Virus record (IMG/VR): IMGVR_UViG_3300042010_000012
Location: 5,816 to 69,815 of that record
DNA length: 64,000 bases
DNA from: a virus
Direction: 5' to 3' (one strand)
Under the pieces are notes generated by a model. It searched no databases, was not told the DNA's origin, and saw nothing but the letters and a program-made list of their open reading frames with translations. The translations under genes and the position numbers were made by a program. The stretch's first letter is position 1; every line of letters begins with the position of its first letter. This document shows, in pieces, positions 1 to 46,815 of the stretch.

Positions 1-1590
1 ATTTCTTCGAACGCGACACCAGTGGCAACCGCGATGAAGTTCAGACGAATGACGTTGATCGAACGCGCTGGTTTCACGTAGATATCACCAACGAATTCGT
101 TTGCATCAATCACTTGAGGCGTGTTGTTCGAGCTATCGCAAATTACTTTGCGGCTGTAGATACCACGACGTGCCTGAATGTCGCCCAGGTATTGATCGGT
201 CGAGTTACGGAACAGCGCTTGAGTGATGAAGTCGTTCAGTTCGAACAGTTGGTAACGAGCAGAACGCGAGATTGCTTTCTTGATCACGATGAACAGAGTC
301 CGAACGTTGATACGGCTGAAAGCAGATGGAGCGCGCAATGCAGTCTTGTCACCGAACAGAACAGTACCTTCGCCTTTGAAGGAGACGATGCTGTTGATCG
401 ACATCGGATACAGAACGTCACGTTGAGTCTGGTTAGAACTCCAAGCAAGCTTGATAACGTTTTTCAACACGCCGCGGTTGAGACCTGCAGGGCTGAACCA
501 AGGTTCGTTCTGAACGAATACACGAGCATGCAGACCAGCAGCATCCGAGTCACAAGGGATCCAGATATTCTTGTCGTTATACTTGTCGTTGACCAGCTTC
601 CAGTTGTCCACGTTGAACGCGTAGCTAGTAGGCTTGTTCAGAGTGGTACCGAAGTACTCGACCAGGTTATCAACGCGGTCAAGGGTGTTGTAGACAGCTT
701 CCAGGGGCGGTGCGTTAAACGCGACAGCATCCAGACGACTATCCATAACATCGATTGCACGAACAACGCCTTCAATCGGGTTGAATGCAGTAAACACACG
801 CACGATTTCAACCAGGTCGTTGTTAGCGAACAGGTCCCAACCAGATACGAAGTCACCGTTAGCCGCAACGTTATCGTCAACACCACTTTTCAGGAGAGCT
901 TCATACTTACCTGTAGTGAACACGACTTTAGCAACGTCACCCAACAGGATGTATTTCGACTGAGCCTTCAGAACTTCACCGAGCGATGCCGAAGTACCGT
1001 CGCTTTTCTTCTGACCAGTAGCCAGAGTCATCAGTTCATAACGTTCAAGAATAGTGCCAGCGTTACCAGAAATGGAACCGCTTACGTCAACCACGACCAC
1101 GTTGAAAGTGGTAGCGTCAGTAGGCGCGTATTCGAATTCGTTTTTGTATGCCCAAGCAGCGTAGCCAACAGAGTTCGCAATGGAGATCTTGACACCGTTT
1201 ACCATGTCACCAGGGTAACGACCGATGAAGCTAATACCATCAAGCTCAATCGAATCATAGTGATCAGTGTTACGCACCAGCGGAGCGAGTACGGCGATAT
1301 CAGTGTCGTCTGTGATAGCGTTCTTTGCAGCAGTACCAACAACACGTACGGTTGCCAGAGGCACGCTGTACAGCATATAGTTGGCTGCGGCATGGAAGAA
1401 TGGGCTAGTTGCAGCATCAGGTTGACCGAAACGCTGTAGCAGTTCAGCTTCGTTGGTTGTGAGTTCTACGATTTCATCAACCGGGCCCCAACGGAACATA
1501 CCAACGTAGCCAGTTGCGTTCGAGGTAATGCTTTGGGTGTTGTAAGTAAGATCGATTTCCTTACTGTACACACCAGGAGAGTTCGCCATA
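1..1590 (-). CDS. 18: tail sheath protein (gp18-like), C-terminal part beyond window start
   Basis: Reverse-strand translation from ATG at 1590 (RBS AAGAGG) gives MANSPGVYSKEIDLTYNTQSITSNATGYVGMFRWGPVDEIVELTTNEAELLQRFGQP..., matching the T4 gp18 N-terminal pattern (..TG.A..G.F.WGP......VTNE..L...FGQP). It lies downstream of the terminase genes as in T4. The + ORF 114..1439 is a shadow of this gene. Confidence 0.8.
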
Positions 1591-1655: not shown

Positions 1656-3362
1656 CTAGAACACACCAAATGGTCGCGCCTCAGGAATGCCTGTGAACTC
1701 TTCGAAACCGTTTGCAATGATGCCGAACGGTAACAGAGACTCCATCAAGTCTTCCTCAAGTATGCCGCGCACGTTTTTCCGTACGTCTTTGTCTGTCAAA
1801 TCAATGAAGTACTGTTGCACGGTTGCCCATGCAAACAACACACAGCACATCACAAGGTCATCATGTGCCCCTGAGTCGGCCTCATACGACTTACCTTTAG
1901 GGACGAATGTACCGAACTCATCAATCATTTCCTCATCGCTGAGTTCGAGTCGGCCAGTTTCAATCATCGTCTTGACACTTGAGCAGCCAATTGACTTGAC
2001 TTGCGTAGTGGTCCTAACGCCGATACGGGCATCGTTTTTGAAGCCGATTGTCTGCAAACTCTTTTCCGAGTAGCACATCAGCAAGTTTTCATACTCAAAT
2101 TCGTAATAGAGAATGTTGGCTACTTGTTCACCGATGTCGTTAATCTCAACTAGGACATAAGCACCGTTGTACTTGTCGGCAACAGTCTTGATCACTTGCG
2201 GATAGATCATCGGAGATATCGTGTTATTCTTGTAAGTCGCCACGACCTTATACGGTACCTGAGTGACATCGAACACCACAAATGCCGAAAAGTCACCACC
2301 CACACCACGCGACGTATCAACAGTGACGAAATATTCGTGGCCGTTGATCGGATGCGCGTAGACCTTCAAGTCACCAAACGTGTCAATCGGCTTGTTGATC
2401 ACCAGTTGTGCAAGTGTGTCTGCACTCAGCAAGCTGTTCTGGCTACCACGGAAGATAATGCCGTGTTCTTGGTTGAATTGCTCGGCCGAGGTGTTAGCGA
2501 TCTGTTCAGCTTTCCATGCAGCATCGCGACCTGGTACAAGATACCAAGGCACTTCCATACGCTTGAACTGGTTGATGCCGTTGACTGACTCTTGCCACAA
2601 CTTGTGAAACAGCCCACGCGCACCGTTAGGTGTCGACGTGATGATAATGCGCGACTCTTTACCCGATGAGATTACAGGGTAGGTCGATTCATAGAATTCC
2701 ATGTCACGCGGAATGAACGCGCCTTCGTCGATGTACACCAACGAGATAGAACGACCACGAATAGAGCTAGACGTCGAAGCACCACAGAACAACTCAGAGC
2801 GGTTGCCAAACTTCATCGAACCTTTGTTGTATGTCGTCACACCTTGCTTGAGGAAGTTCGGTAGACTTTCATATGACATCTGGATCCGTGACAGAATCTC
2901 CCGCGCTTGAGCAGCTTTGTTCGCCAGAATCGCAATCGTCTTCGACGGCGTAAAGGTCGCAAAGTGTAGCAGGTAGGTCGCAGTCGTCTGGGTTTTACCC
3001 GTCTGCCGTGCCTGCATCGAGATAACAAATCGATGTTTCTGGTACAGTTCTAGCAACTCTTCTTGGAATTGATAGAGGTTGAACGGAATAATACCATCGT
3101 CGATGGAGATGATCTTGACGTACTTGCGCGCAAAGTACACAACATCCCGCATACACTTGATGTACTCAAGTTTCTGGAGATCTGAGTATTCGAATACAGG
3201 CGCGCCCGCTCTCAGGATGATCTGATTGTTTTTGTAGTAATGTTCCTTGTCAGTGAACACGTCAGGCACATAAAGGCTGTAAGTGTTCTTACTCAAGAAC
3301 TTCTTAACGAGTGCAGTGTTATTCGTTATGAACTCGACAAGATCAAATGGGTAATCGGACAT
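1656..3362 (-). CDS. 17: terminase large subunit (gp17-like)
   Basis: 568 aa. Walker A motif QARQTGKTQ resembles T4 gp17 SRQLGKT. Sits in the conserved order 16-17-18. Confidence 0.9.
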   Translation of the reverse strand: MSDYPFDLVEFITNNTALVKKFLSKNTYSLYVPDVFTDKEHYYKNNQIILRAGAPVFEYSDLQKLEYIKCMRDVVYFARKYVKIISIDDGIIPFNLYQFQEELLELYQKHRFVISMQARQTGKTQTTATYLLHFATFTPSKTIAILANKAAQAREILSRIQMSYESLPNFLKQGVTTYNKGSMKFGNRSELFCGASTSSSIRGRSISLVYIDEGAFIPRDMEFYESTYPVISSGKESRIIITSTPNGARGLFHKLWQESVNGINQFKRMEVPWYLVPGRDAAWKAEQIANTSAEQFNQEHGIIFRGSQNSLLSADTLAQLVINKPIDTFGDLKVYAHPINGHEYFVTVDTSRGVGGDFSAFVVFDVTQVPYKVVATYKNNTISPMIYPQVIKTVADKYNGAYVLVEINDIGEQVANILYYEFEYENLLMCYSEKSLQTIGFKNDARIGVRTTTQVKSIGCSSVKTMIETGRLELSDEEMIDEFGTFVPKGKSYEADSGAHDDLVMCCVLFAWATVQQYFIDLTDKDVRKNVRGILEEDLMESLLPFGIIANGFEEFTGIPEARPFGVF

Positions 3363-12102: not shown

Positions 12103-12110
12103 TATTTATA
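12103..12110 (-). promoter_or_regulatory. T4-type late promoter TATAAATA for the 1639-aa gene
   Basis: + strand tatttata = TATAAATA on the - strand. Lies about 37 nt upstream of the ATG at 12066, immediately after a terminator hairpin. Confidence 0.55.
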
Positions 12111-12135
12111 CCAAAATGCGCCAAAGGATGGCGCA
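12111..12135 (-). terminator. rho-independent terminator after the 437-aa gene
   Basis: The - strand reads TGCGCCATCCTTTGGCGCA followed by TTTTGG. Confidence 0.55.
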
Positions 12136-12160
12136 CTTGATATCAACTCACCACACGGGA

Positions 12161-13474
12161 TCAAAATCCTATGATGAATCTTACCTCTTCCGTTTGCGTA
12201 TCGTTGCGCGCAATCACTTCACGGTTGGAGATGTACATGAACTCACCAGTACGGGTCACAACGTCGTCAGCCGAAGCAACAGTGCTAACGAGTACCAAGT
12301 TCGTGTTGTTTACAACTCGCTCAATTGCCGCTGATACACCATCACTGCTAATTGTTTCGGACTGAATAAACGCACCAACTACAGTGTCGATCCAAAGTGT
12401 CCGTTCATTGTCGTCAACGAGACGAATAACCCCAGTTGCCCCTGTTGTGTCCCCTGTGACAGTCTCGCCAGCTTTAAAGCCGTTAGTTGATGCAACTGTG
12501 ATCTTAGAGCCTTGTTCGGTGCTCAACGGCTTGTACAGGAGCCCAGCTTGACGGAAGGTCGTAGTTGGGAACGCGCCACCTTCAGCACCATTCAAGGTCA
12601 TTTTGATCATCTTGTTCACGCCACCAAGTTCAAGCTTGGCATCTTTACCGTGACCACCAACTGGTGCAATGATCGCCACTGAGGTGCAGCCATTACCTGA
12701 ACCAATGTTGGTCAGTGTGACAGTTGCGGTCGTGTAGTTCAGCCCTGGGTTCGTGATCAAGATGCGCGTGATTGCCCCTGAGATCGGGTGTACATCAGCT
12801 TGCGCAGTTGCACCTGTACCGTCACCAGTGATGACCACAGTAGGTGGAATAGCAGGGTTGTAGCTTGCGCCACTGGTCTTAACCACGATGTCATGAATAC
12901 CACCGTCAATCGCGTTCTCCTGCACTTGCCATTGCGATGAACCATCGTTCGCAATAATCGTGTAGACAGGCATCCAGTCTTGCGTCAAGAAGCTGAACAC
13001 GTCGGTCGAACGGATGGTGTACATGTACTTCCAGATGTAACCGTCGGGTGTTTTGAACTCGGTGATTTGCTGCGACGTAGGCTTGTTGACTGACGCCGCG
13101 CCATTGTTGTTCGACAGACACTTGTAGACGTTGAACTCATCAGTCAACGCGTAATAGCGATAACGGGTGCCGTTACTCTTACGATCATCGACCATGTTCA
13201 AGGTATCGTCGAACGCATCGTACACCGAGTTTGATGTCCAGTTGATGCGCTGAATCACCGACGTCATTGTGTCGGCAGTAACACGCTTAACGGCCAACAT
13301 GTTTTTGTAGAGCTGAGTCAAGTCCTTTGTTGATTCGGTAGGAATATCAGGCAGTTCTTCGTCAGCCCATGAAGTGTCCTTACCGATGAACAGGTACGTT
13401 GGCTGTTCAGCGATTCGTTTGGCGAACGTCTCCGAATTCAAGATCCGGAGTGAGTTTGAAATAATACTTGACAT
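12161..13474 (-). CDS. hypothetical virion structural protein (baseplate- or fibre-associated)
   Basis: 437 aa in the late block between the giant protein and the fibre/Tfa module. Glycine/threonine-rich C-terminal half. No confident family match. Confidence 0.45.
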   Translation of the reverse strand: MSSIISNSLRILNSETFAKRIAEQPTYLFIGKDTSWADEELPDIPTESTKDLTQLYKNMLAVKRVTADTMTSVIQRINWTSNSVYDAFDDTLNMVDDRKSNGTRYRYYALTDEFNVYKCLSNNNGAASVNKPTSQQITEFKTPDGYIWKYMYTIRSTDVFSFLTQDWMPVYTIIANDGSSQWQVQENAIDGGIHDIVVKTSGASYNPAIPPTVVITGDGTGATAQADVHPISGAITRILITNPGLNYTTATVTLTNIGSGNGCTSVAIIAPVGGHGKDAKLELGGVNKMIKMTLNGAEGGAFPTTTFRQAGLLYKPLSTEQGSKITVASTNGFKAGETVTGDTTGATGVIRLVDDNERTLWIDTVVGAFIQSETISSDGVSAAIERVVNNTNLVLVSTVASADDVVTRTGEFMYISNREVIARNDTQTEEVRFIIGF

Positions 13475-17426: not shown

Positions 17427-17455
17427 TTGACTCAAGACGTGCCATACGCTATGAT
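17427..17455 (+). promoter_or_regulatory. sigma70-type early promoter TTGACT-N17-TATGAT
   Basis: -35 TTGACT at 17427..17432, a 17-nt spacer, and -10 TATGAT at 17450..17455. Sits in an AT-rich divergent region at the start of the + strand early block. Confidence 0.55.
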
Positions 17456-17496: not shown

Positions 17497-17718
17497 ATGA
17501 CAGTTGCAATGGCGTTAACGCTTGCTCTAACAGGCATCTGTTTCTGGATCAGCGTTGGTGGTATCGGTCTGAACCTGATTGGTCGACTGTTCTATTCACG
17601 TCTGAAGCCAAAGCGTGGCATCATGTACTGGCTGTTCTTCTTCATTATGCCGTTGGCAATGTTTTTATTCTTTGCACGCGCTTCTAAATTAGGTCTTGGC
17701 GATGGAGTCTGGTGGTGA
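17497..17718 (+). CDS. small membrane protein
   Basis: The track ORF starts with GTG at 17470. An internal ATG at 17497 is preceded by GAGGAGG. Two hydrophobic segments. Confidence 0.5.
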   Translation: MTVAMALTLALTGICFWISVGGIGLNLIGRLFYSRLKPKRGIMYWLFFFIMPLAMFLFFARASKLGLGDGVWW

Positions 17719-18197
17719 TATTCATTTTACGTGGTCCTAACTGTGTTGGTAAGGATCGATTCGCAGATGCACACTTTCAACCGAATTGCGTGCTGTCGAC
17801 CGATGACTTCAGGTTACGGTTATTCGACGACACGAGTAAACAGAACAACGCCAGTGCTATGGTCTATGAACTGATCAAAAACACGCTGGAGATGCGTTTG
17901 CGCTTCGGTTGCAATTACACTGTTATCAACTCATCGAACCTTAAGTTCCATGAGTGTGGTGACTACCTTGCGTTGGCGAAGCGATTCAAGCGAACTGTGA
18001 AGTTCATCAGCTTTGATCCGCCCTCTGTTGACGTTCTGAGGGCGCGCTATGCAAAGCGCGACATTGATGAGCATGTCGACTTTGAAAAGCAGTGTACGCG
18101 TTATTACACGCTCATGCCGCGCTTCCAAGAAGCGGCTAAGTACGATACTGGCGTGGAGTTCGTCCGTATCAACCAAGATTGGGAAATCGTCCAATGA
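17712..18197 (+). CDS. P-loop kinase (polynucleotide-kinase-like)
   Basis: 161 aa. Walker A motif ILRGPNCVGKD. GTG start with RBS GGAG. ATGA overlap with the downstream metallophosphatase. Confidence 0.5.
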   Translation: MVIFILRGPNCVGKDRFADAHFQPNCVLSTDDFRLRLFDDTSKQNNASAMVYELIKNTLEMRLRFGCNYTVINSSNLKFHECGDYLALAKRFKRTVKFISFDPPSVDVLRARYAKRDIDEHVDFEKQCTRYYTLMPRFQEAAKYDTGVEFVRINQDWEIVQ

Positions 18198-18952
18198 AAT
18201 ATAATCCTATCCAAGATCTGCTAATGAAGCATATCGTTGTCGCTGAACCTCATTGTGAGTATTACGCGATTGGTGATGTTCACGGCTGTGCAGACGAATA
18301 CAACGCTCTGGTCGACAAATGCGATCATGATGCCCGACTGTTAGGTAAGTATGCACGTATCTTTCAACTCGGTGACATGATCGACCGAGGCCCGCACTTT
18401 GCTGGCATGATCATCAATGATCCAGCCGACTACAAGGTAATGGGTAATCACGAATACAACTTTGTCCTTGAACATTACGGCTATAAGCCTTATTCGTCTC
18501 TGGCGCGCAACAAGAACCATGAAGCACTGGCACAGTTACCTAAAGACAAACAACAGTGGATTGTTGACCTGTTGATCGAACGCGAAACCTTCTACACGAT
18601 CATTCTCGATGGTCACGCGTTTGTACTGAGCCATGCGCCTATAAAAGATATCGAGAAGGGTATCGGTTTCATCTTCAGAGATGCTATCGGTAGCGTCCCT
18701 AACTATTGCATGCGCTCGACTGCTGTTGATATGGATAAACTAAGAGCGAATCACACCGACACCACGTTCGTACACGGACACCAGAAGTGGAACTATCATG
18801 ACCTTGAAAAGCAAGTTGAAGAGCAGCGCGGTTTTGATGTTGCTTCGTATAACATCGATGCCGGTTGCGTATACGGAGGGGATCTTGTCGCTCTTCGGTT
18901 ACGTGATAGTTGCGTACTTAAAGTAAAATCGAATATTAGTGTTGACAAGTAA
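18194..18952 (+). CDS. calcineurin-like metallophosphatase (PP-lambda/ApaH-like)
   Basis: Motifs GDVHGC, LGDMIDRGP, GNHEYN. Start placed at the ATG at 18194, which overlaps the kinase stop (ATGA); the track start at 18179 is TTG. Confidence 0.6.
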   Translation: MKYNPIQDLLMKHIVVAEPHCEYYAIGDVHGCADEYNALVDKCDHDARLLGKYARIFQLGDMIDRGPHFAGMIINDPADYKVMGNHEYNFVLEHYGYKPYSSLARNKNHEALAQLPKDKQQWIVDLLIERETFYTIILDGHAFVLSHAPIKDIEKGIGFIFRDAIGSVPNYCMRSTAVDMDKLRANHTDTTFVHGHQKWNYHDLEKQVEEQRGFDVASYNIDAGCVYGGDLVALRLRDSCVLKVKSNISVDK

Positions 18953-18969
18953 TTGTCACACTGTAGAAT
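18942..18969 (+). promoter_or_regulatory. sigma70-like promoter TTGACA-N16-TAGAAT upstream of gp45
   Basis: TTGACA at 18942..18947 and TAGAAT at 18964..18969. Overlaps the phosphatase stop codon and lies about 40 nt before gene 45. Confidence 0.45.
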
Positions 18970-19007: not shown

Positions 19008-19727
19008 ATGAAATACATGAGCAACACTAACGAAGTGCGTCTGAGCAAAGAAACTGTTGATATTCTGAAAGGGTTGTATGCAATCAACCAGACACTGAAG
19101 ATCGTTGCAGGCAAGCAGGAAATTCGCAGCGTCAACGATACCAAGACCATCGCCTTCCAGGCACCGATCGCTGAAGACTTCCCGCGTACCTTCTGCATCT
19201 ATGATGTGCGTGAGTTCATCGGCGTTGTAGGCATCATTTCCAATCCTGTCCTGGACTTCAGCAACGACAAGTTTGTTCTGATCAAGTCTGAGGATGGTGG
19301 TCAAAAACTGAAGTATGTGGATGGCGCTGAAAAGCTCATCAACTCCTACTTCGAAAAAGACTTCCAACTGCCAAGTGAAGACCTGGAAGTCAGCGTGACT
19401 GCGCAGCAACTGAAGGCTGTGATGAACGCGGCGAACGCGCTGAAACTGGAATACGTCGGCTTCAAGTCTGATGGTGCTAAAGTTGTGCTGAGCGCATTCG
19501 ACCGCAACAACGGTTCGGGTGATGACACCAACGGCTTCTCTATCGAAGTCGGCACTACTTCTGATACCTTCGATCTGTTCTACAAGACCGATGCCCTGGC
19601 TGTTCTGGATGGCGACTGCAAATTCGAAATCAGTTCGCGCAAAATCTCCAAAGTGACCAACGCCAACAAGACCTTCTGGATGGCTCTGGACGCTAGCAGC
19701 ACTAGCACATTTGCGCCTAAGCCTTAA
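19008..19727 (+). CDS. 45: sliding clamp (gp45-like)
   Basis: N-terminal RLSKETVDILKGLYAINQTLKI resembles T4 gp45 KLSKDTTALLKNFATINSGI. The 45-44-62-regA order is conserved. An alternative start is the ATG at 19017. Confidence 0.7.
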   Translation: MKYMSNTNEVRLSKETVDILKGLYAINQTLKIVAGKQEIRSVNDTKTIAFQAPIAEDFPRTFCIYDVREFIGVVGIISNPVLDFSNDKFVLIKSEDGGQKLKYVDGAEKLINSYFEKDFQLPSEDLEVSVTAQQLKAVMNAANALKLEYVGFKSDGAKVVLSAFDRNNGSGDDTNGFSIEVGTTSDTFDLFYKTDALAVLDGDCKFEISSRKISKVTNANKTFWMALDASSTSTFAPKP

Positions 19728-21231: not shown

Positions 21232-21619
21232 GGTTGAACTACTCGATACGGAAAGTTTTCGGAAAGTCAAAGAAACATTGACCCGCATCGGTCTTGCGAG
21301 TCGCAGTGAAAAGGTGCTGACTCAGTCAGCACACATTCTACACCGTCAAGGTCACTACTACATCTGCCACTTCAAAGAGCTGTTGGCGCTCGACGGTCTG
21401 CGCACCGACTTGAGCGAAAGTGACATTGAACGTCGCAACCGCATCGTCCAGATGTTGGTTGAGTGGAACCTCATCAAGGTCGTTGACCCTGAGCGACTTG
21501 TCCCGATGGGCTCACCTAACGTTGTGAAGATCATCAAGTACGCTGACAAAGAAGATTGGGAACTGCGTACCAAATACACAATCGGCATTTATCACAAAGA
21601 GAGTACTAAGCATGAGTGA
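21224..21619 (+). CDS. regA: translational repressor RegA
   Basis: MVEVELLDTESFRKVKETLTRIGLA...HILHRQGHYYICHFKELL matches T4 RegA MIEITLKKPEDFLKVKETLTRMGIA...HILQKKGLYYIVHFKEML. Start adjusted to the ATG at 21224. Confidence 0.8.
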   Translation: MVEVELLDTESFRKVKETLTRIGLASRSEKVLTQSAHILHRQGHYYICHFKELLALDGLRTDLSESDIERRNRIVQMLVEWNLIKVVDPERLVPMGSPNVVKIIKYADKEDWELRTKYTIGIYHKESTKHE

Positions 21620-22100
21620 AGCAGCACAGCAACAAATGACCCCTGAACAGGAACAGACCTTCGCGATGTACATCACTGTGGCACAAGTTGCGCACCAAGT
21701 GAATCGTGCTTACTGTCTGTCGATCGGTGACGATACTGTTGTTCCTTGGGATCAAGCTCCTGATTGGCAAGTTCAGTCGGCAATCGATGGTGTTGCTTTC
21801 CATATCGCCAATCCTGATTGCACCCCTGAGCAGTCGCACAAAAACTGGATGGCTCAAAAGACTCGTGATGGATGGGTTTACGGTAAAGAGAAGCGTCCTG
21901 AAGTCAAGATGCATCCGTGCATGGTGCCCTACGCTCAACTGCCACAGGAACAGCGTTCGAAAGACTTCCTGTTCAAGGCAATCTGCGAAGAGTTCGCGGT
22001 GATCTTCGGTATGCGTGAACCTGTTGCTGAACCTGATGAAGGGGTTCTTGCTGAACCAGTAGTTGAACAGTCCGAGCCGTCGCGAATTATCTTGGCGTAA
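21612..22100 (+). CDS. RyR-domain protein
   Basis: KNWMAQKTRDGWVYGKEKRPEVKMHPCMVPYAQLPQEQRSKD matches the RyR domain signature (W...GW.YG.....K.HP.LVPY..L.E..K..D). Confidence 0.5.
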   Translation: MSEAAQQQMTPEQEQTFAMYITVAQVAHQVNRAYCLSIGDDTVVPWDQAPDWQVQSAIDGVAFHIANPDCTPEQSHKNWMAQKTRDGWVYGKEKRPEVKMHPCMVPYAQLPQEQRSKDFLFKAICEEFAVIFGMREPVAEPDEGVLAEPVVEQSEPSRIILA

Positions 22101-23882: not shown

Positions 23883-23898
23883 TATGTGGAGAATAACA

Positions 23899-24324
23899 AT
23901 GATTGACCATTTTGATGGCGACTTCAAGTTTCTGAGTAACTTCTACCCTTCTGAGGTTGAACTTGACAACATCATGTTTCCGACTGTTGAGCATGCGTAT
24001 CAAGCTGCTAAGTCGGATGATTGGGATGAGCGTGCGTTGATGAGCTTGATACCTACAGCAGGTCAAGCAAAGCGCGCAGGTCAGAAGCTCAAACTGAAGC
24101 AAGACTGGCACTTACACAAACGGCGCATCATGGAAGACCTTCTAGTTCAGAAGTTCAAACATCCTGAATTGCGCGCACTGTTGATGGCGACTGAAGGCCA
24201 TGATCTGGTCGAGGGGAACTATTGGGGTGATACATACTGGGGAATCTACAATGGCAAGGGGCATAACTACTTGGGTAAGATCCTCATGTCAATCAGAAAC
24301 GGTATCAGTATGGGAATACTCTAA
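23899..24324 (+). CDS. NADAR (YbiA/DUF1768) domain protein
   Basis: FLSNFYP...VEHAYQAAK...W...G.N.LGKILM.IR signature. Start moved to the ATG at 23899 with RBS GGAG. Confidence 0.6.
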   Translation: MIDHFDGDFKFLSNFYPSEVELDNIMFPTVEHAYQAAKSDDWDERALMSLIPTAGQAKRAGQKLKLKQDWHLHKRRIMEDLLVQKFKHPELRALLMATEGHDLVEGNYWGDTYWGIYNGKGHNYLGKILMSIRNGISMGIL

Positions 24325-25942: not shown

Positions 25943-27253
25943 ATGTTAAAAGTACTGAACTCCCTCGAAGCGACAAGCAAGCGCACGGTGAAGGAGTCGA
26001 TCCTTACCAATCTGTCGCATGACGAAGCCGAGCTGTTCAAAAAGATCGGGATCGCTACCTACAGCCCTGGCATCACATACAACATCGTCAAGTACCCGCG
26101 CCCGACCGTCTACACTGGGCTGAATACGCTTGAAGCCGCAATCGATGGCCTGAAGGTGTTGTCGTCGCGCAGTCTGACTGGTAAGAAGGCAATCGAGTAT
26201 ATGACACGTCTCGAAGGCTCTCTCAGCGCAGATGACGGTGAGGTCTTGTTCCGTATCGTCAAGAAAGACCTGCGTTGTGGTGTGACTGACTCAACGATGA
26301 ACAAGGTCTGGCCGGATCTGATCTACACCGCCCCGTATCAGCGTTGCTCTTCGTTCAGCAAGAAGAACCTGTCGAAGCTCAAGCTACCAGCATTCAGTCA
26401 GACCAAATCTGACGGTATGTATGTCGACATCATCGCAAACCCTACAACTGTGGTCTATCGTTCGCGTACATGTGAAGTCAAGCCGTTCAACAACCAAGAA
26501 ACTGACGGTATGTTCATCCCTGGCTTCGTGTACATGGGTGAAGCTCTGTACCTGGATGAGAATGGTAAGATCATGTCGCGTAAAGACGGTAATGGTCGTC
26601 TGAACGCCGATGAAGTTGATACCAGCCGCATCGTCTTCGTGCTGTGGGATATCGTGCCACTTGCTGACTATGAAGCGCGCATCTGCAAGATCCCCTACGC
26701 AACGCGCTTGAACACCCTGAAAACTGCAATCGCTGGCAAAGCTGATCATCTGCGTCTTGTCAGTACGAAAGTCGTCAACAGCGTGCAAGAGATCATCGAC
26801 CACTTCAAAGAGGAAGTCGAGAAGGGTGAAGAAGGTACAGTCGTCAAGAACCAGCACGGTATATGGGCCGATCACACTTCACCCGACCAAGTCAAGTGTA
26901 AGATCGAATTCGAGTGTGACCTTGAGATCATCAGGCTTGAAGAAGGCACAGGTAAGAATGCTGGACGACTCGGCGCTGCCGTGTGTGCATCGGCTGAACG
27001 TATGCTGATCACTGGCGTTGGTACGGGCTTCAGTGACAAAGACCGTGATGCACTGTGGAATGAAAGTACTGTTGGTATGATCATCACTGTTCGGGCCAAC
27101 GATATCGTGAAAGATCGCAACAGCGAAACCTTCGCACTGTTCCTGCCACGCAACATTGAAGTCCGTACAGACAAAACCGTGGCAGATACATATGAACGTA
27201 TTGTTGAACAAATGAACGCATTCGTAGACACCCTAGAGGCCATTGGCAAATGA
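25943..27253 (+). CDS. 30: ATP-dependent DNA ligase (gp30-like)
   Basis: Adenylation motif I QTKSDGMYVDI (KxDG). 436 aa. Confidence 0.8.
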   Translation: MLKVLNSLEATSKRTVKESILTNLSHDEAELFKKIGIATYSPGITYNIVKYPRPTVYTGLNTLEAAIDGLKVLSSRSLTGKKAIEYMTRLEGSLSADDGEVLFRIVKKDLRCGVTDSTMNKVWPDLIYTAPYQRCSSFSKKNLSKLKLPAFSQTKSDGMYVDIIANPTTVVYRSRTCEVKPFNNQETDGMFIPGFVYMGEALYLDENGKIMSRKDGNGRLNADEVDTSRIVFVLWDIVPLADYEARICKIPYATRLNTLKTAIAGKADHLRLVSTKVVNSVQEIIDHFKEEVEKGEEGTVVKNQHGIWADHTSPDQVKCKIEFECDLEIIRLEEGTGKNAGRLGAAVCASAERMLITGVGTGFSDKDRDALWNESTVGMIITVRANDIVKDRNSETFALFLPRNIEVRTDKTVADTYERIVEQMNAFVDTLEAIGK

Positions 27254-30869: not shown

Positions 30870-31223
30870 ATGTACGGATCAGTCGACGACTTTTATCAAA
30901 AGGTTGTCGCGGTCGATTACGACGACACGATAAGCCATCATGACAATGCCTGGTTGAAGATCCTCAAGGCATTCGAGTTGACTGGCTATCGTGTCATTAT
31001 CGTTACCTACCGCCAACCTGATTGCTGCCCTGAAGACCTCGACTTCCTAGTTAAGGCTGGGTATAAGGTGTACTTCACTGGTCAACAGTCAAAGCGACAG
31101 TTCATGTTGATGCGTGGGATCAAAGTTGACATCTGGGTTGACGATACACCAGAGTCGATCATCTTTGACTACAGCACCTATCACAGCAAGTTCGATATTG
31201 ATGAGGAGTATATCGTGCAATGA
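30870..31223 (+). CDS. HAD-superfamily phosphatase (nucleotidase-like)
   Basis: Motif I VAVDYDDTIS (DxDxT). Motif IV-like VDDTP. 117 aa. Confidence 0.5.
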   Translation: MYGSVDDFYQKVVAVDYDDTISHHDNAWLKILKAFELTGYRVIIVTYRQPDCCPEDLDFLVKAGYKVYFTGQQSKRQFMLMRGIKVDIWVDDTPESIIFDYSTYHSKFDIDEEYIVQ

Positions 31224-34972: not shown

Positions 34973-35620
34973 TTACTTCTTGAGCTTGTAAGCATCGGCA
35001 TTTGAACCTTTCTGGAATCGTGCCAGTGGTAAGAACAAAGCCATCTCCCAAGACTGCGAAGGTACTTCGACGAACACTGATTTGACGTGGTCCATACGGT
35101 ATGAGTGAATGCAATGCTTGAACATGTCGACTTCACTTAGGTTCTTCAGCAGTTCCCATTCAAGAGCCAACTTTGTGTGTTTGCGATAACGACTCTCGGT
35201 GCGCAGCTTCAACAGGGCGGCAAACGCGATCATCCGCATCTTTGGCGAGAGATAGTGCATGTTCAGTCCAATGACAATCTCCATCCCGTCTTTCGCTTTG
35301 TATGAGCTTATAGGGAACATCATTGGGTAACGGTCCCAGATAGGCAGAGTCGCCTTGTGCTTGGCATCGTATTCAAAGAAGTACATACGACCAGGCGTCA
35401 GCTTCTTAGCCCACAAACTGCGATCTCGAAACATCGCGCCTGTACCGAGCTTGTTGTAAGACTTACCAACATAGTTGCGGAACCAGTCAAGCGATGCGGC
35501 GATGTTGCGCTTCATTGAATTCGGGTTATTACGGTAAAACGCTTTCTCAAGGTTTTTTAGGATCTCAAGGTCCGTGCCTGTCGAGTTCTTGACTGGTTCG
35601 TCTTTTGGTTGCGCGGCCAT
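34973..35620 (-). CDS. hypothetical late protein
   Basis: 215 aa. First gene downstream of an exact late promoter. Confidence 0.5.
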   Translation of the reverse strand: MAAQPKDEPVKNSTGTDLEILKNLEKAFYRNNPNSMKRNIAASLDWFRNYVGKSYNKLGTGAMFRDRSLWAKKLTPGRMYFFEYDAKHKATLPIWDRYPMMFPISSYKAKDGMEIVIGLNMHYLSPKMRMIAFAALLKLRTESRYRKHTKLALEWELLKNLSEVDMFKHCIHSYRMDHVKSVFVEVPSQSWEMALFLPLARFQKGSNADAYKLKK

Positions 35621-35665
35621 AAATTATGGAGTCCTAGCTAAATAACAGATGTGTATATTCTCTAG

Positions 35666-35673
35666 TATTTATA
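35666..35673 (-). promoter_or_regulatory. T4-type late promoter TATAAATA for the lysis-module operon
   Basis: + strand tatttata = TATAAATACTAG on the - strand, 46 nt upstream of the ATG at 35620. Confidence 0.55.
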
Positions 35674-35688
35674 GGACAAAACCACGTT

Positions 35689-36657
35689 ATGGCTTCTTTC
35701 AAAGAACATACAGCGAACATCTTGCAAAATGGCCTGGCGCGTACTAACCGATTCCAGGTACTCATTCCTACACCTATGATGCGCAATGATGCTATTGGTG
35801 ATGAATCGAGTGATGAGTTCGTAGGGCCTAAACCACCTGTCTCCAAACTCAAAGCGTTGTTTGGTGAAGCAGTCAAAGTGATTCGTATCTTCACTGGTGG
35901 TGGTTCTGCTGAATACACCCGTGGTCTTGATTTGATGTGTTCACAGACTGAACTTCCTGGCAAGACGATCAACACGTCCGAGACCAAGTATAACGGTGAC
36001 GTACACAAGATTGGTCAGTCATTGATGTACGGCAACCAGCAGTTCACCTTTCATGTGTCACAGGACATGTATGAAAAGACCATCATCGATCAGTGGATGA
36101 ATATGGTCGTTGATCCTGAAACGCATGAAGTTAGTTATCTGACCGACTATGCGGTAACGATCAACGTGTTCCAGCTTGATCAGAACGACAAGATTGTCCA
36201 TGCAATCGCGCTGATTGACGCATTCCCAGTCATGATGAACCCACTGACATTGTCGAACAGTGAGCATAACAACGTGCACGAATTGATGGTTCAGTTTGCC
36301 TATCGTCGTTGGATTAACCTTGATCTCTCAGCAGACCCTGAGAACAGCATGGACAGTCTACTTGATACACCACTAGGTCCGTACCTTGCGCCGATCTTGT
36401 CGAACCCTGTGGTACAGCGTGGTCTTGAATATGTGAAGAATACAACCGGCCTCGATCTGCAAGGCGAAGCATTGAACATATATAAGCAGGTAGACGACAT
36501 CGTCAAAAATACAACTGGTGAATCGATTAACAAATCTGTTGGTCTGATGAACTCAATCAAAGCCTCACTTGATGTCAACGATAAAATCACCCAAGCCGAT
36601 GCAGGCAAGTTGTTTGATTTCGTTGAAGGTGCAGTGCAGAAATTTAAACCAAACTAG
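35689..36657 (+). CDS. baseplate tail-tube family protein (gp48/gp54/gp19-like)
   Basis: N-terminal RTNRFQVLIPTP resembles gp19 RPNLFQV and gp54 NMFSCVFATTP. 322 aa, similar in size to gp54. Confidence 0.5.
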   Translation: MASFKEHTANILQNGLARTNRFQVLIPTPMMRNDAIGDESSDEFVGPKPPVSKLKALFGEAVKVIRIFTGGGSAEYTRGLDLMCSQTELPGKTINTSETKYNGDVHKIGQSLMYGNQQFTFHVSQDMYEKTIIDQWMNMVVDPETHEVSYLTDYAVTINVFQLDQNDKIVHAIALIDAFPVMMNPLTLSNSEHNNVHELMVQFAYRRWINLDLSADPENSMDSLLDTPLGPYLAPILSNPVVQRGLEYVKNTTGLDLQGEALNIYKQVDDIVKNTTGESINKSVGLMNSIKASLDVNDKITQADAGKLFDFVEGAVQKFKPN

Positions 36658-41285: not shown

Positions 41286-42980
41286 TTAGTCAATCAGGCG
41301 TTGACGAATCTCGGACAGACTTGTTTCAGATACAACACCGTTGTGGAACAGAATCTCCATCGCACCCAGGTTGTCGATATCACTCATCGGTTGTTGGTCG
41401 TACAAGACGAACTCATCACCTTCTTTCTCGACTCGCAGAAGACCTTTAGCCGACTTCTTGAGCGCGTCACCAGTCTTCGGATCTTTGAACAGCTCAATAA
41501 ATTCACCGTCAATGACAGTAGCTGTGGCTTTAACAGCACTACCAAAAGTATCACGAGTTGAATAGTTGTAAGTGTAACTGCCAATGCCAAGTACCACATT
41601 GCCACTTGCGAAGCCCTTATCCATCAGACGTTGCAGAATTTCCCACTGACGTTCCAGGGTGATGCTGTCACCGTAGATCAGACCGATGTGAGTGTCGAGT
41701 TGTTTGAAGCCTTTGTCGGAGTAAGTACCACCGAAGGTTTCCCACAGCAGTTCGATAGAACCTTTGACTTCGTGATCTGGTATAACTTCACCAACTGCTA
41801 CGCGGCTTGGGTCAACACGATCAAATCGACGATACTGATCACCAATACGAACAACTTGAGCCTTACCGATAGAACTCAGCTTTGCGGTTTCGAAGTCATA
41901 CGCTTTGTAGAATGCATCAACACTATCGAACTCATCAGCCAGAACATGTAAACCGCAGATGATTTCGATTGGATTGCCGCTGTCAGGGCGAATGACCAAA
42001 CGACCATCACGCGCCATAATTGCCTCTTTGACGCCCGGAGTAGGCAAGAGCTGAGTCAGCAAACCCCAGTAATCGTAGGTGTCAGCAACATAGCTGGCAA
42101 AGCCTGTAGGCACGATGCGAGTGATGTAGTCGAGCAGGAAGCGAACTTCACCGAGCAACAGGTATTGTTCATCGGTCATGCCAGGCATTTCTTCGCGCAG
42201 TGCACGAACGTGGAACAGGATGTTGCTGGAACTGATGCTGTGTTCAGTAGCAGGTACACTACCACCAATCAGTTCGTTGTCGGAATCGGCGTGGTAGTAG
42301 TCTTCCACGTAGTCGATAGCCGATACCACATCAGTGCCAGTGAACGACAGCAAGTGAGCAGCACCCGAACGCGCAGCATCTTCAGGACCCGACATACCGC
42401 GAGAAGAGAAGTCGTGACCTTGCCACTGGATCGCTTCTTTCGGCGTACCAGTCAGTTCAGCGAAGTGTTCGAACACGCGGCGATATTCGTAGGCGATGGT
42501 CGCGTTGAGACTGGATTTCCAGTTCGAGTTCGATAGAGTCGGTTCGATGTAGTTGACCAACCAGGCGAAGTCAGGGTGAGTGTTGTTGATCATCATTGTT
42601 GGAACTTTCATGCTGACGCGACTGCCTTCTGGCAGAGCGCGTACAAGCAGCGGCAGATAGCCCAGATCATGCAGTTGAGCGAAGCCGTCAGCAGGGATAA
42701 CGCCAGGGCCCATCATGTTGTTACAACGACGTTGATAGCGCGCAACAGCTTGTTCTTTTGGTAGGTTGAAGAACTGTTCATTGAACGCTTCAACCAGGAA
42801 TTCGGACGCGAAACCTTGACCACCAAACACAACCATCTTCTTGTCGAACAGTGGGCCACCTTTGAACAGGCGGTCACTGCGAGGGGTGAAATTTGAAGAC
42901 AGGAAAGTAGTGAATATGCGCATCATTGCGCGGTGACCAAGTTTATACGCGTCGGTTGCTGACAGAGGTTGCAGTTTCAT
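41286..42980 (-). CDS. NAMPT-family phosphoribosyltransferase (NadV-like; possible nicotinamide ADPR transferase Namat)
   Basis: 564 aa. TDAYKLGH, HDFSSRG, SVPATEHS and IRPDSGNP match NAMPT TDSYKVTH, HDFGYRG, SVPAAEHS and IRPDSGNP. Confidence 0.75.
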   Translation of the reverse strand: MKLQPLSATDAYKLGHRAMMRIFTTFLSSNFTPRSDRLFKGGPLFDKKMVVFGGQGFASEFLVEAFNEQFFNLPKEQAVARYQRRCNNMMGPGVIPADGFAQLHDLGYLPLLVRALPEGSRVSMKVPTMMINNTHPDFAWLVNYIEPTLSNSNWKSSLNATIAYEYRRVFEHFAELTGTPKEAIQWQGHDFSSRGMSGPEDAARSGAAHLLSFTGTDVVSAIDYVEDYYHADSDNELIGGSVPATEHSISSSNILFHVRALREEMPGMTDEQYLLLGEVRFLLDYITRIVPTGFASYVADTYDYWGLLTQLLPTPGVKEAIMARDGRLVIRPDSGNPIEIICGLHVLADEFDSVDAFYKAYDFETAKLSSIGKAQVVRIGDQYRRFDRVDPSRVAVGEVIPDHEVKGSIELLWETFGGTYSDKGFKQLDTHIGLIYGDSITLERQWEILQRLMDKGFASGNVVLGIGSYTYNYSTRDTFGSAVKATATVIDGEFIELFKDPKTGDALKKSAKGLLRVEKEGDEFVLYDQQPMSDIDNLGAMEILFHNGVVSETSLSEIRQRLID

Positions 42981-43030: not shown

Positions 43031-43855
43031 TTACCAGGGGAAGTAAACCATGTTGGCAGGCATGTTGTTGATTGCAGCGCCTTTGAAGCTTGTCGTAGTG
43101 TACACACGATCAAATTCATTCGCAACTACATCAGCGCCTTTAGTGAACAAGCCGTGAGTTACAGCAAGTTCAACGCGATTTGCGGCAGTAGTCAGTTTGG
43201 CGAGTTCGATGAAAGTACGGCCACCGTCGCAGATGTCGTCAAGTACGAACAAGTTCAAACCAGTTACATCGGCAGACATTGTCAGGCTTGTAATGTGACC
43301 AGTAGCCATGTCGCGTTCTTTGTTGCAGACGATAACACCTTTTGCACCGACTGCTTTGGCGAACGCTGCCGACTTCTTGTATGCACCTGCATCAGGCGCG
43401 ACGATGTGGATATTCGACCAGTTGCTGTGCACACGACGGAAGATGTCGATCTGGTCGATAACGACGATGTTTTTGATCAGTGCGGACATTACATCGCTGT
43501 GTGGATCAAGTACGACGACTTGTTCGAACCCCAGGTTGTTGATAAGTTCCGCCATTACCGCTGCACTGTGAGCATCACCGCGATTGCAGACACGATCCTG
43601 GCGCGCATACGGCATGTAAGGGATGCGCGCTTTCAACTTGATGCCGACGTATTCACGACGCAACGCATCCACTGTAAACAGCAACTTCATGATGTCGTCA
43701 TTTGTTGCGAGGTACGCAATAACAGTGGCTTCGGTTACTTCAGGATGACCCCAACCAGAAGGCTTTTCACTGTTGAGGCCAATACCCACTTCACCAGCAG
43801 GGAATTGTTTGTTCTCAATGTCGTAGGTAACATTACCGATAATATACTTGATCAC
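43031..43855 (-). CDS. ribose-phosphate pyrophosphokinase family protein (Prs-like; possible ADPR-PP synthetase Adps)
   Basis: 274 aa. IPYMPYARQDR and VLDDICDGGRT match the Prs PRPP-binding motifs. The N-terminal ~50 aa are atypical for Prs. Confidence 0.7.
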   Translation of the reverse strand: MIKYIIGNVTYDIENKQFPAGEVGIGLNSEKPSGWGHPEVTEATVIAYLATNDDIMKLLFTVDALRREYVGIKLKARIPYMPYARQDRVCNRGDAHSAAVMAELINNLGFEQVVVLDPHSDVMSALIKNIVVIDQIDIFRRVHSNWSNIHIVAPDAGAYKKSAAFAKAVGAKGVIVCNKERDMATGHITSLTMSADVTGLNLFVLDDICDGGRTFIELAKLTTAANRVELAVTHGLFTKGADVVANEFDRVYTTTSFKGAAINNMPANMVYFPW

Positions 43856-44835: not shown

Positions 44836-44836
44836 G

Positions 44837-45154
44837 TTACTTCGTTTCCTTGAGTTTGAGGGAATCTTCGAATTGCTGTTTGATGGAAGCCGCAGTATTG
44901 TGCGTGCTTTCAACTTTGTCAATAGTCAAAACAGGAGTTTCGACATCGAATTTGTTGCGACCAAGATCAGCTTGGCGAGTGCCTACGTCAAACGCGCTGA
45001 GACCCACTACAGCAGCGAGAACCAGGGTAGCTAGTGCAACATACTTCTTGTGCTGGCGAAAGCTGTGCAGGGTGAGTAACGCAGTCACAGTCAGCACTAC
45101 GATTGCCATGTACAGTTGCAGCGGGCTCCAACTCAGGTGAATTTCAACCATCAC
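44837..45154 (-). CDS. NfeD-like small membrane protein (putative SPFH partner)
   Basis: 105 aa. Two TM helices followed by a soluble beta-rich C-terminus. ATGA-type coupling to the SPFH gene, the typical operon arrangement. Confidence 0.4.
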   Translation of the reverse strand: MMVEIHLSWSPLQLYMAIVVLTVTALLTLHSFRQHKKYVALATLVLAAVVGLSAFDVGTRQADLGRNKFDVETPVLTIDKVESTHNTAASIKQQFEDSLKLKETK

Positions 45155-45732: not shown

Positions 45733-46815
45733 TCAATCGCCCTGTTTGATCAAATAACGGTTCGAAATTGCCTTGAACTGCCAGTTGCGAGTCAACGACT
45801 TGAACACCAAGCCCTCGCGAAACTTACCTTTCAAACCACTGTCACCATCGGCCAGAGCCAAGATTTCGGCCATAGTAGGAGGCAACATCATGCGCACGCT
45901 GAACGTAGGGACCATCTGCAAGTCAAGATCATCACAGACATGCCTTGCCTCACCAGGCAACATGTACTGCTGAGCATCGATGTCAAACACGTTGTAGACG
46001 TACAGCTCAACGTCATCCAAGCCTTCGAAGTTTGACTGGATACCAGGTCCAACCATCTCACCTTGAAGTGCAATGTTACGACCAGTCACGGCATGATAGG
46101 TGCGCAGTTTGTCGTCAAGGTTGTATTTGTTGAAGGTCTTGACAAAGAGGTTTTCCTCATTGCCTTCAAACTTCAGCTCCAGGTTACGCGAGCAAACGCC
46201 AGTGACAACAACATCCTCAGCATTTTTCTTGACATAGCCTGTGAAGCTGCTACCATCAAGCTTGTAGGTAACGTTGAACTCTTCCTGAGAGTCAACAGCG
46301 TCTTGATACTGACGCTTGAGGTTCTGCACCCGTTCCTGATCGGACTTGCGGATGAACTGCGGGAAGTTGCCTTTGGCCAACCCTGCAAGATTCGCATTGA
46401 CTGGGCGTTCCCATTTCAGGATGCCCAGGGTTTCAGTCAGGTCAGTTTCTGTGCCTACCAACAGGTCATCGGCCAACTGAACAGCGATAGCATCACCGTT
46501 AGGCAACTCTTTCACAGGGATCAACAAGCCTTGACTGATCTCACCGCGCAGTTTGATGGTGCGCAGACGCTCACCTTTGACGCCTTCGTAGACCTTCGGC
46601 TCTTTGTCTTTCGACAGGAACGGTGCGATCTCATGTGGAATCCAGCTGTCAACTTCGAAGTAACAGGCAATATCACCAGTCACATACAAACCTTTCTGAG
46701 CAACTACACGCCAGCCACCGATTGTGGCGATGTCAAGGGCATCAGCGTTTGGGTGTGCAATTACTTCATCCAGCACAACCAAACGCGCTAGTTTACGTTC
46801 ACTCATTTCTTTCAA
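45733..46815 (-). CDS. ATP-dependent RNA ligase with N-terminal tRNA-binding (Trbp111/EMAP-like) OB domain
   Basis: N-terminus VLDEVIAHPNADALDIATIGGWRVVAQKGLYVTGDIACYF matches the tRNA-binding domain signature (HPNADKL...QIVSG...PGD). Ligase motif I YKLDGSS (KxDG), motif IV EGLVFK, motif V FKAISNRYLIK. Confidence 0.6.
   Translation of the reverse strand: MKEMSERKLARLVVLDEVIAHPNADALDIATIGGWRVVAQKGLYVTGDIACYFEVDSWIPHEIAPFLSKDKEPKVYEGVKGERLRTIKLRGEISQGLLIPVKELPNGDAIAVQLADDLLVGTETDLTETLGILKWERPVNANLAGLAKGNFPQFIRKSDQERVQNLKRQYQDAVDSQEEFNVTYKLDGSSFTGYVKKNAEDVVVTGVCSRNLELKFEGNEENLFVKTFNKYNLDDKLRTYHAVTGRNIALQGEMVGPGIQSNFEGLDDVELYVYNVFDIDAQQYMLPGEARHVCDDLDLQMVPTFSVRMMLPPTMAEILALADGDSGLKGKFREGLVFKSLTRNWQFKAISNRYLIKQGD

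Follow-up and report, generated by a model that had tools for sequence, protein, structure and literature searches.

The subject of this work is a pair of overlapping genes in a 64,000-nucleotide stretch of viral DNA (IMG/VR virus record IMGVR_UViG_3300042010_000012, positions 5,816 to 69,815 of that record), referred to below as the window, with all coordinates counted from its first letter. The window is a segment of a T4-like phage genome, syntenic with Pseudomonas phage pf16 (genus Chakrabartyvirus). The upstream gene of the pair (17712..18197, plus strand) encodes a P-loop polynucleotide-kinase-like protein of 160/161 amino acids (aa) that is very probably a homolog of the kinase domain of bacterial Pnkp, and the downstream gene (18194..18952, plus strand) encodes a 252-aa binuclear metallophosphoesterase that corresponds in the same manner to the 2',3'-phosphatase domain of that enzyme. 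The two open reading frames (ORFs) lie in different frames and are not one polypeptide; an ATGA that is read directly from the sequence (18194..18197, plus strand) holds both the start codon of the phosphatase and, overlapping it, the stop codon of the kinase. The start codon of the kinase is GTG 17712 or GTG 17715, the latter forming a GTGA with the stop codon of a small upstream ORF; a GGAG is found at 17704-17707 and the TGA stop at 18195-18197. The phosphatase start is best put at ATG 18194-18196, giving the 252-aa product, where the mechanical ORF list has TTG 18179. No C-terminal adenylyltransferase/ligase domain is present: the phosphatase ORF comprises 252 residues and is followed by the sliding-clamp gene. 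An earlier note on this DNA, the sequence-only reading, had described a P-loop kinase (GPNCVGKD) overlapping a metallophosphatase by ATGA, with the motifs GDVHGC, GDMIDRGP and GNHEYN in the latter; the overlap is borne out by the sequence and its ORFs, and all three motifs are found, at aa 27-32, 60-67 and 84-89.

The kinase matches Pfam AAA_33 (expectation value (E) 5e-15), and its sole NCBIfam match is to the kinase segment of TIGR04075 (bacter_Pnkp; positions 10-121, E 2e-13, 49 bits vs a cut-off of 750). Against the sequences of the PDB, the only significant matches are to the kinase domain of Clostridium thermocellum Pnkp (CthPnk; 4GP7), with E 1e-5 for the single sequence, and a 12-sequence profile likewise retrieved CthPnk only (E 2e-12). 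An AlphaFold2 model built from 42 homologs (predicted local distance difference test score (pLDDT) 90.9) returned CthPnk entries as the top six Foldseek matches (E ~2e-9, template-modelling score 0.77), the runners-up, 3-4 logs behind, being PFKFB, PSTK and mammalian PNKP. PHROG 505 'polynucleotide kinase' is matched at profile positions 3-130 of 295 only, and the 160-aa ORF contains no HAD domain.

Equivalents of the CthPnk active-site residues are conserved at 87-100% per column over 226 aligned kinase domains. The Walker A motif or P-loop, GPNCVGKD (G8 to D15; 17733..17756, plus strand), has K14 at the position of CthPnk Lys21, which with Mg2+ acts on the phosphates of the nucleoside triphosphate (NTP), and D15 in place of Ser22, which in CthPnk is essential and the sole protein ligand of Mg2+ (PMC3902929). 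In the phosphoacceptor motif S29-T-D31-D-F-R34 (17796..17813, plus strand), alignments equate S29, D31 and R34 with CthPnk Ser37, Asp38 and Arg41, Asp38 being the general base of that enzyme (PMC3902929); across the 226 sequences these columns hold S in 216/226, D in 224/226 and R in 225/226. The column of CthPnk D78-A-T80 is occupied by N73-S-S75 (17928..17936, plus strand), with Asn for Asp and a Ser/Thr kept at the Thr80 column. The lid arginines R112 and R116 (18045..18059, plus strand), which align with CthPnk Arg116 and Arg120, are invariant (42/42 sequences); in CthPnk the former stacks on the nucleobase and the latter, redundant with Arg123, contacts the gamma-phosphate (PMC3902929). 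As CthPnk Arg41, Ser37 and Thr80 grip the first phosphodiester of the acceptor strand (PMC3902929), the retention of R34, S29 and S75 argues for a polynucleotide kinase, and against a nucleoside, deoxynucleoside monophosphate (dNMP) or other small-molecule kinase.

The phosphatase gave no Pfam match at a threshold of E 0.01, and its homologs carry PF00149. A 30-sequence profile searched against the PDB had the CthPnkp phosphatase domain (4J6O) as its best match, over the full length (E 8e-18), followed by ApaH (~6e-17, N-terminal half only) and lambda phosphatase 1G5B (8e-12), and 4J6O was also the best PDB match of the single sequence. The AlphaFold2 model (pLDDT 93.3) gave 4J6O as the top Foldseek match as well (E 7e-12), with lambda phosphatase (E 8e-10) and Ap4A hydrolases about two logs behind. 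In NCBIfam, the phosphatase matched ApaH NF001204 through residues 23-150 only (E 3e-15, 56 bits vs a cut-off of 176), positions 182-413 of TIGR04075 (E 4e-12, 45 bits vs 750), PrpE (E 3e-11, below cut-off but full-length like the TIGR04075 match) and TIGR00668 (ApaH; 32 bits vs 223). PHROG 246 ('NinI-like serine-threonine phosphatase') was matched with E 1e-23 at profile positions 168-394 of 417 only, which, we conjecture, fits a profile built partly on fusions.

Nine residues are essential in the CthPnkp phosphatase, namely Asp187, His189, Asp233, Arg237, Asn263, His264, His323, His376 and Asp392 (PMC3675462), and the equivalents of all nine are invariant in the 30-sequence family alignment. 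Motif I, GDVHGC (18272..18289, plus strand), provides D28 and H30 for Asp187 and His189; motif II, GDMIDRGP (18371..18394, plus strand), provides D61 and R65 for Asp233 and Arg237; motif III, GNHEYN (18443..18460, plus strand), provides N85 and H86 for Asn263 and His264; and H147, H196 and D222 (18632..18859, plus strand) stand for His323, His376 and Asp392. Judged by these residues, the protein is surely an active-looking binuclear metallophosphoesterase. The lambda phosphatase/ApaH/PrpE clade shares its fold and its metal and phosphate ligands; unlike the window phosphatase, however, members of that clade stand alone, with neither kinase nor ligase association, and the window protein has an invariant block of its own after GNHEYN (N89, F90, E93, K98, S102, R105).

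It could be argued from these matches that the phosphatase hydrolyses Np4N in the manner of ApaH and PrpE, with an alarmone or Np4-capped RNA as its substrate, and that the kinase acts on nucleotides, e.g. as a dNMP kinase like T4 gp1. ApaH NF001204 is the best NCBIfam match of the phosphatase (E 3e-15), with PrpE at 3e-11; ApaH structures score near 4J6O; and the P-loop of the T4 dNMP kinase (1DEK), GVKRSGKDT, has the same GKD. However, the ApaH match is confined to the N-terminal half of the phosphatase, whereas the Pnkp and PrpE matches run over its full length. An identity of the kinase with T4 gp1, prompted by the common GKD, was tried and rejected, as hhalign gave a probability of 4.8% over 38 columns around the P-loop only, and 1DEK is not among the top 50 fold matches of the kinase model. 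A separate gp1-like ORF is moreover found in pf16 (gp74, 35393-36208, minus strand, beside the DNA polymerase), where it is a weak tblastn match to T4 gp1 (E 0.002). The Np4N-hydrolase explanation also leaves the RNA-ligase linkage and the gene fusions described below unexplained, and we regard it as highly improbable.

Relatives in which the two activities reside on one chain provide a direct connection between the genes. An exhaustive HMMER search with the kinase profile (1.84 billion representatives) returned the standalone family (~165 aa) and then many proteins of 385-435 aa with the kinase at residues 1-160. The C-terminal halves of these ~400-aa fusions match the window phosphatase (P0162: 42% identity, E 3e-60), they match TIGR04075 positions 10-421 in one stretch, and they are colinear with the window pair across the stop/start junction, without an extra linker. 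Several of them (P0162, P0172 and P0166, from metagenomic phage contigs) are direct homologs of both window proteins, but as single polypeptides. Longer relatives have an added ligase domain, which may be of the Pnkp type (P0290, 1088 bits), Rnl2-like (P0194) or Rnl1-like (P0236). The P0162 fusion, encoded on another T4-like contig, takes the place that the pair has in the window; the genes there run Rnl1 homolog, fusion, gp45, gp44, gp62, RegA, RyR and PIF1 helicase. P0162 keeps a GKD P-loop, whereas most ~400-aa fusions have the canonical GKS. A second lineage of GKD kinases is fused to an HD phosphohydrolase (P0144, P0155), and P0145, a further member of ~300 aa, lies two genes upstream of an Rnl1-type ligase. 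In a neighbour-joining tree without support values, which offers only a hint as to the direction of fission, the mostly fused GKS forms are basal and the standalone GKD clade is derived, with P0162 nested inside it; this order suggests gene fission followed by one re-fusion. We had also considered the ~400-aa fusions as Pnkp1-like, an equation that was rejected because Capnocytophaga Pnkp1 is a T4-type HAD enzyme (PMC4411300).

The order kinase, phosphatase, gp45, gp44 is found in 14/14 IMG/VR loci; in 12/14 no gene separates the kinase from the phosphatase, and in 8/14 an Rnl1 lies directly upstream of the pair. In the more divergent T4-like contigs L002, L003, L005 and L006 the arrangement is RNA_lig_T4_1, (small ORF), kinase, phosphatase and gp45, and all four of these ligases clear the gathering threshold of Pfam. 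The kinase and phosphatase genes overlap by 4-19 nucleotides in pf16 (8 nucleotides), L002, L003, L005, L012 and L013. In L013 the gene 5' of the kinase (2269-3153, plus strand) encodes a 294-aa Rnl1 homolog without the ~100-residue segment bearing the KxNG adenylylation motif, from which it appears that the ligase may be on its way out in some lineages. Two contigs, L025 (6177-10228) and L026 (6483-10534), have ~4 kb of small ORFs between the kinase and phosphatase genes, which gave no Pfam matches, and no Rnl1 was detected there. The kinase as a whole is represented by ~90 clusters in metagenomes, plus pf16, whose gp126 ('ATPase') and gp127 ('NinI-like serine-threonine phosphatase') are the only cultured-phage orthologs we found, with 39% and 53% identity to the window pair. 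The synteny downstream of these genes (gp45/gp44/gp62/regA) is that of the window. The pf16 paper does not discuss gp126 or gp127 and contains 0 mentions of polynucleotide kinase or phosphatase, and the pf16 annotation lists no polynucleotide kinase. When Pnk-type proteins were used as tblastn queries, neither the window nor the complete genome of pf16 yielded a PseT-type kinase or a second one of the Pnk type.

The labels just cited would have the phosphatase be a lambda/NinI-type Ser/Thr protein phosphatase, with an unrelated ATPase or small-molecule kinase next to it by incidental adjacency. The names of PHROG 246 and of the RefSeq entries for gp127 and gp126 agree with such a view, and lambda phosphatase 1G5B is a significant match both by profile and by Foldseek. 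Against this, the kinase and phosphatase are paired in all loci examined, down to ~30% identity, the two genes are fused in many relatives, and the kinase keeps its polynucleotide-acceptor residues. Furthermore, the PHROG 246 profile has 417 positions, little more than half of which are matched, and lambda phosphatase itself has 2',3'-cyclic phosphodiesterase activity (PMC2190708). We therefore consider a protein phosphatase beside an unrelated enzyme to be very improbable here.

We consider it likely that the overlapping genes represent the two end-healing activities of a bacterial-Pnkp-type enzyme, split between two proteins, and that they constitute a polynucleotide (most likely RNA) end-healing module; we are more confident still that each protein is a homolog of its Pnkp domain and that the two function as a pair. 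The split Pnkp-like end-healing module of the sequence-only reading is thus supported: the CthPnkp domains are the best matches by sequence, profile and fold, the fusions are colinear with the pair, and Rnl1 is linked to it in relatives. We infer that the substrate is RNA rather than DNA, that the enzymatic activities are those named here, that the proteins form a complex, and which ligase is their partner in the window phage. The phage probably uses the pair to repair RNAs cut by host defences, which would make it a counter-defence system.

Several observations weigh against an RNA end-healing module. Taken alone, the phosphatase resembles ApaH, PrpE and lambda phosphatase to about the same degree, such that its substrate is unreadable from sequence and must be inferred from context. 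The adjacent Rnl1 is absent in the window's own subclade (at least 65% kinase identity; L012, L017-L021) and in pf16. The sole RNA ligase in the window is of a nick-sealing type, 27 kb off and on the opposite strand, and in pf16 the end-healing pair coexists with gp31, an RtcB-type ligase that needs unhealed ends. The P-loop Ser that is swapped here (CthPnk Ser22, T4 Ser16) is essential in both characterised enzymes, and the Asp that is swapped for Asn either corresponds to or adjoins the essential Asp85 of T4 Pnk. Last, the pair stands in a DNA-replication block, directly upstream of gp45, gp44, gp62 and regA, and CthPnk-type kinases take DNA 5'-OH ends, the Michaelis-complex crystals in fact holding a DNA oligonucleotide (PMC3902929).

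The last of these points lends itself to a different explanation, in which the pair belongs to a replication/recombination module and heals DNA ends, restoring at nicks or breaks in phage DNA the 5'-PO4/3'-OH that the ATP-dependent DNA ligase of the phage requires; such a function would be compatible with a role on RNA. In L003 and L006 the pair is downstream of a gp46-like SbcC ATPase, and in the window a DNA ligase gene (25943..27253), also present in L013, follows 7 kb downstream of the pair in the same orientation. However, the adjacent co-oriented gene in related phages is an Rnl1-type RNA ligase and not a DNA ligase, the ligase domains to which the module is fused belong to RNA-ligase families, and its characterised homolog, Pnkp, is an RNA repair enzyme (PMC3675462). 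We deem DNA-end healing improbable, if less so than either of the rival explanations discussed above.

If the RNA end-healing reading is correct, the 252-aa metallophosphoesterase, of the Mn2+/Ni2+ type, would open and remove the 2',3'-cyclic phosphate, or remove the 3'-phosphate, to leave a 3'-OH, and the 160-aa kinase would move the NTP gamma-phosphate to the 5'-OH with Asp31 as the general base. Arg34, Ser29 and Ser75 would hold the first phosphodiester, Lys14 with Mg2+ would act on the phosphates, and Arg112 and Arg116 would form the lid. An ATP-dependent RNA ligase would then seal the healed ends; in relatives this is presumably the Rnl1-type enzyme encoded directly upstream, while in the window phage it may be the NgrRnl/DraRnl-type ligase described below or a ligase encoded outside the window. 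The ATGA overlap, together with that between the small ORF and the kinase start, would couple translation of the genes, and the kinase and phosphatase probably work as a complex.

The changes at the two active-site positions deserve separate consideration. Throughout the kinase family, down to ~30% identity, the P-loop reads GK-D and not GK-S/T, a departure from the essential Ser of CthPnk and T4 Pnk on which the sequence-only reading had made no comment. When the residue after the P-loop Lys is compared with the column of CthPnk Asp78 ('VVDATN') over the 226 aligned kinase domains, co-variation is perfect: 95 sequences have D with N and 129 have S, T or G with D or E, while D/D and S/N pairs number 0. 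These counts are taken over related sequences and may rest on few evolutionary events. The GKD/Asn kinases occur as standalone proteins, fused to the calcineurin-like phosphatase (P0162, P0172, P0173) and fused to HD domains (P0144, P0155). Ser16 and Asp85 of T4 Pnk are essential (PMC2831316), and our literature search found no documentation of a role for CthPnk Asp78.

It is conceivable, given that residues essential in CthPnk (Ser22) and T4 Pnk (Ser16, Asp85) are here Asp and Asn, that the kinase is a dead or repurposed pseudo-kinase and that the phosphatase alone is active, e.g. in removing 2',3'-cyclic phosphates. Yet over ~95 GKD sequences of 30-98% identity every other residue for catalysis or substrate binding is invariant or almost invariant, and the GKD P-loop is compatible with catalysis because the T4 dNMP kinase, an active enzyme, has it. 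Furthermore, the perfect coupling of the two changes suggests compensation rather than decay, and we think a pseudo-kinase very unlikely. From the alignment, we infer instead that the coupled change is a compensated relocation of a carboxylate within the metal site. By extension, and only tentatively, as we think this on balance unlikely, the GKD/Asn combination may be the signature of a clade of phage-borne polynucleotide kinases with a re-wired Mg2+ site, in which the carboxylate has moved from the beta-3 'VVD' into the P-loop, possibly altering the use of metal or phosphate donor. On this same tentative view, the subclade of the window and pf16 would have lost Rnl1 and kept the pair and a small membrane ORF, the module having either been re-partnered (e.g. 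with a nick-sealing Rnl5-type ligase) or become a heal-only counter-defence that removes 2',3'-cyclic-phosphate ends. A re-partnered or heal-only module would, if true, be a repair pathway without an earlier description. In any case, the coupled Ser-to-Asp and Asp-to-Asn change is a simple handle on P-loop metal coordination, open to structure-function tests.

Bacterial Pnkp unites kinase, metallophosphoesterase and ligase, with Hen1 as its partner (PMC3675462). The window pair has in common with it the same two folds in the same N-to-C order, a P-loop 5'-kinase and then a lambda-phosphatase-like metallophosphoesterase, and has kept the general-base Asp, the Arg/Ser/Thr acceptor contacts, the lid arginines and the nine phosphatase residues. 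Pnkp is however one polypeptide with a ligase domain, whereas the window module is split, coupled and ligase-less, with no Hen1 seen nearby: no methyltransferase match turned up among the scanned ORFs, which cover part of the window, or among the neighbours of the pair in 20+ loci. The P-loop Ser and the 'VVD' Asp are replaced by Asp and Asn, the scores against the Pnkp family are 49/45 bits vs 750, and the module resides in a T4-like phage, where its partner in relatives is an Rnl1-type ligase. As such, the module would work like the N-terminal half of bacterial Pnkp and yet appears to fall outside that family by architecture, by score and by one catalytic residue.

The T4 system of PseT and Rnl1, which carries out tRNA repair against PrrC, comes from a phage of similar kind and matches the task predicted for the pair, in that a 5'-kinase and a 3'-phosphatase ready the ends for an Rnl1-family ligase; such a ligase is adjacent to the pair in relatives of the window, and the PseT kinase uses the same Asp/Arg acceptor mechanism (PMC3902929). 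The difference is in the phosphatase: PseT has a HAD/DxDxT acylphosphatase fused to the kinase (PMC3592404), in contrast to the separate calcineurin-like metalloenzyme of the window. In their 2021 survey of jumbo phages, Iyer et al. remark in passing that a few phages may draw their RNA-repair phosphatase from calcineurin-like and HD domains (PMC7824862), such that a calcineurin-like phosphatase in phage RNA repair is not unprecedented as an idea, and there may be an earlier computational mention of the exact split architecture. The pair sits within the well-known modular theme of RNA repair, and the GKD/Asn coupling is the new detail.

In practical terms, a widespread pair of T4-like phage genes annotated as 'ATPase' and 'NinI-like Ser/Thr phosphatase' may be re-annotated as a probable RNA end-healing module. 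Our observations also suggest that this phage lineage has swapped the kinase-HAD chemistry of T4 PseT for the kinase-metallophosphatase chemistry of bacterial Pnkp, with Rnl1 kept in many members; if so, RNA-repair components could be exchanged freely in the arms race between phage and host over cleavage of tRNA and RNA. Phage pf16 is a culturable system in which to find the host nuclease countered by the module.

With regard to a sealing partner, the window encodes an ATP-dependent RNA ligase (45733..46815, minus strand; likely start ATG 46806) of the NgrRnl/DraRnl (Rnl5) type, with a KLDG motif and an N-terminal OB domain. It scores 196 bits against TIGR02306 (cut-off 151), matches 5COT with E 3.5e-63, and has the Pfam RNA_ligase and PHA02142 OB domains, by which it is a full-length nick-sealing ligase of this type and not an Rnl1; pf16 gp168 is its ortholog. 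We regard it as a candidate sealing partner of the kinase-phosphatase pair, and tblastn found neither Rnl1-type nor RtcB-type ligases in the window. In pf16, the 'tRNA splicing ligase' gp31 (12110-13339, minus strand) was considered as an Rnl1 and rejected, as it is RtcB-like (GGGNHF and HSGSRG motifs). Elsewhere in the window, a small protein of 117 aa with a DxDxT-like 'DYDDT' (30870..31223, plus strand) may be a standalone mini-HAD-type phosphatase; it matches NCBIfam BT0820 (HAD) with E 4e-5 (24 bits vs a cut-off of 165) and PHROG 4256 (function unknown), with no Pfam match and no PDB match below E 0.07, none being significant.

The sequence-only reading had joined the pair to a 'tRNA-binding RNA ligase' and a HAD phosphatase as a distributed tRNA repair toolkit. 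An RNA ligase is indeed present, as TIGR02306 and 5COT attest, but the same matches assign it to the nick-sealing Rnl5 type, and tRNA binding is at most a presumed property of it. For the HAD phosphatase, the DYDDT motif is there and the assignment is plausible, whereas the family match is weak and the gene is unlinked to the module. Of the toolkit, the end-healing pair is supported and the HAD member is no more than plausible, and the substrate, be it tRNA, another RNA or DNA, is a matter of deduction. Scans of the window for tRNA and Rfam families came back empty.

Directly after a divergent tail-fibre block, three co-oriented genes, the small ORF, the kinase and the phosphatase, form a unit preceded by a sigma-70-like promoter match (TTGACT-17-TATGAT; 17427..17455, plus strand) from a consensus scan only; in pf16 a 'phage specific promoter' is annotated at the corresponding position. 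The small hydrophobic ORF (17497..17718, plus strand; ~73 aa from ATG 17497), the TGA of which overlaps the kinase start codon, probably has two transmembrane helices and has no match in Pfam, PHROG or NCBIfam. It is kept directly 5' of the kinase in pf16 (gp125), L002, L005, L012 and L017-L021, being positioned in L002 and L005 between Rnl1 and the kinase. A second sigma-70-like match from the consensus scan alone (TTGACA-16-TAGAAT; 18942..18969, plus strand) is located at the 3' end of the phosphatase gene and precedes the gp45 sliding-clamp gene (19008..19727, plus strand), which was identified by Pfam and PHROG searches.

The window contains terminase, tail-fibre and baseplate genes, and then the gp45 sliding clamp, the gp44/gp62 clamp loader, RegA and a PIF1-type helicase; DNA ligase, PhoH, gp32, ribonucleotide reductase, primase and topoisomerase II are also encoded. 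The IMG/VR contig UViG_3300042146_000011 is nearly identical to the window. At the nucleotide level, megablast against 50,697 phage records found 0 relatives of the region, and the protein-level search alone reached pf16. A long TTG-initiated ORF (114-1439, plus strand) has no family matches, is antisense to the place of the tail sheath predicted from pf16 synteny, and is probably spurious. A 274-aa ORF (46812-47636, minus strand) ends a few bases before the RNA ligase ATG at 46806 and overlaps the mechanical TTG start of the ligase; it has no Pfam match, its match to PHROG 17693 (unknown function) falls into two stretches, which points to an internal repeat, and pf16 has in its place a shorter, unrelated-looking ORF (gp169). 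The window also encodes a set for NAD+ salvage and ADP-ribose processing, consisting of a NADAR protein (23884-24324, plus strand), a nicotinamide/nicotinate phosphoribosyltransferase (41286-42980, minus strand) and a ribose-phosphate pyrophosphokinase (43031-43855, minus strand); sets of this kind have been proposed to counter NAD+-depleting host defences. A 311-aa SPFH/Band-7 domain protein is found at 43987-44922 (minus strand), and a RyR-domain protein (21612-22100, plus strand) directly follows regA, a position that is conserved in L002, L005, L012 and L014.

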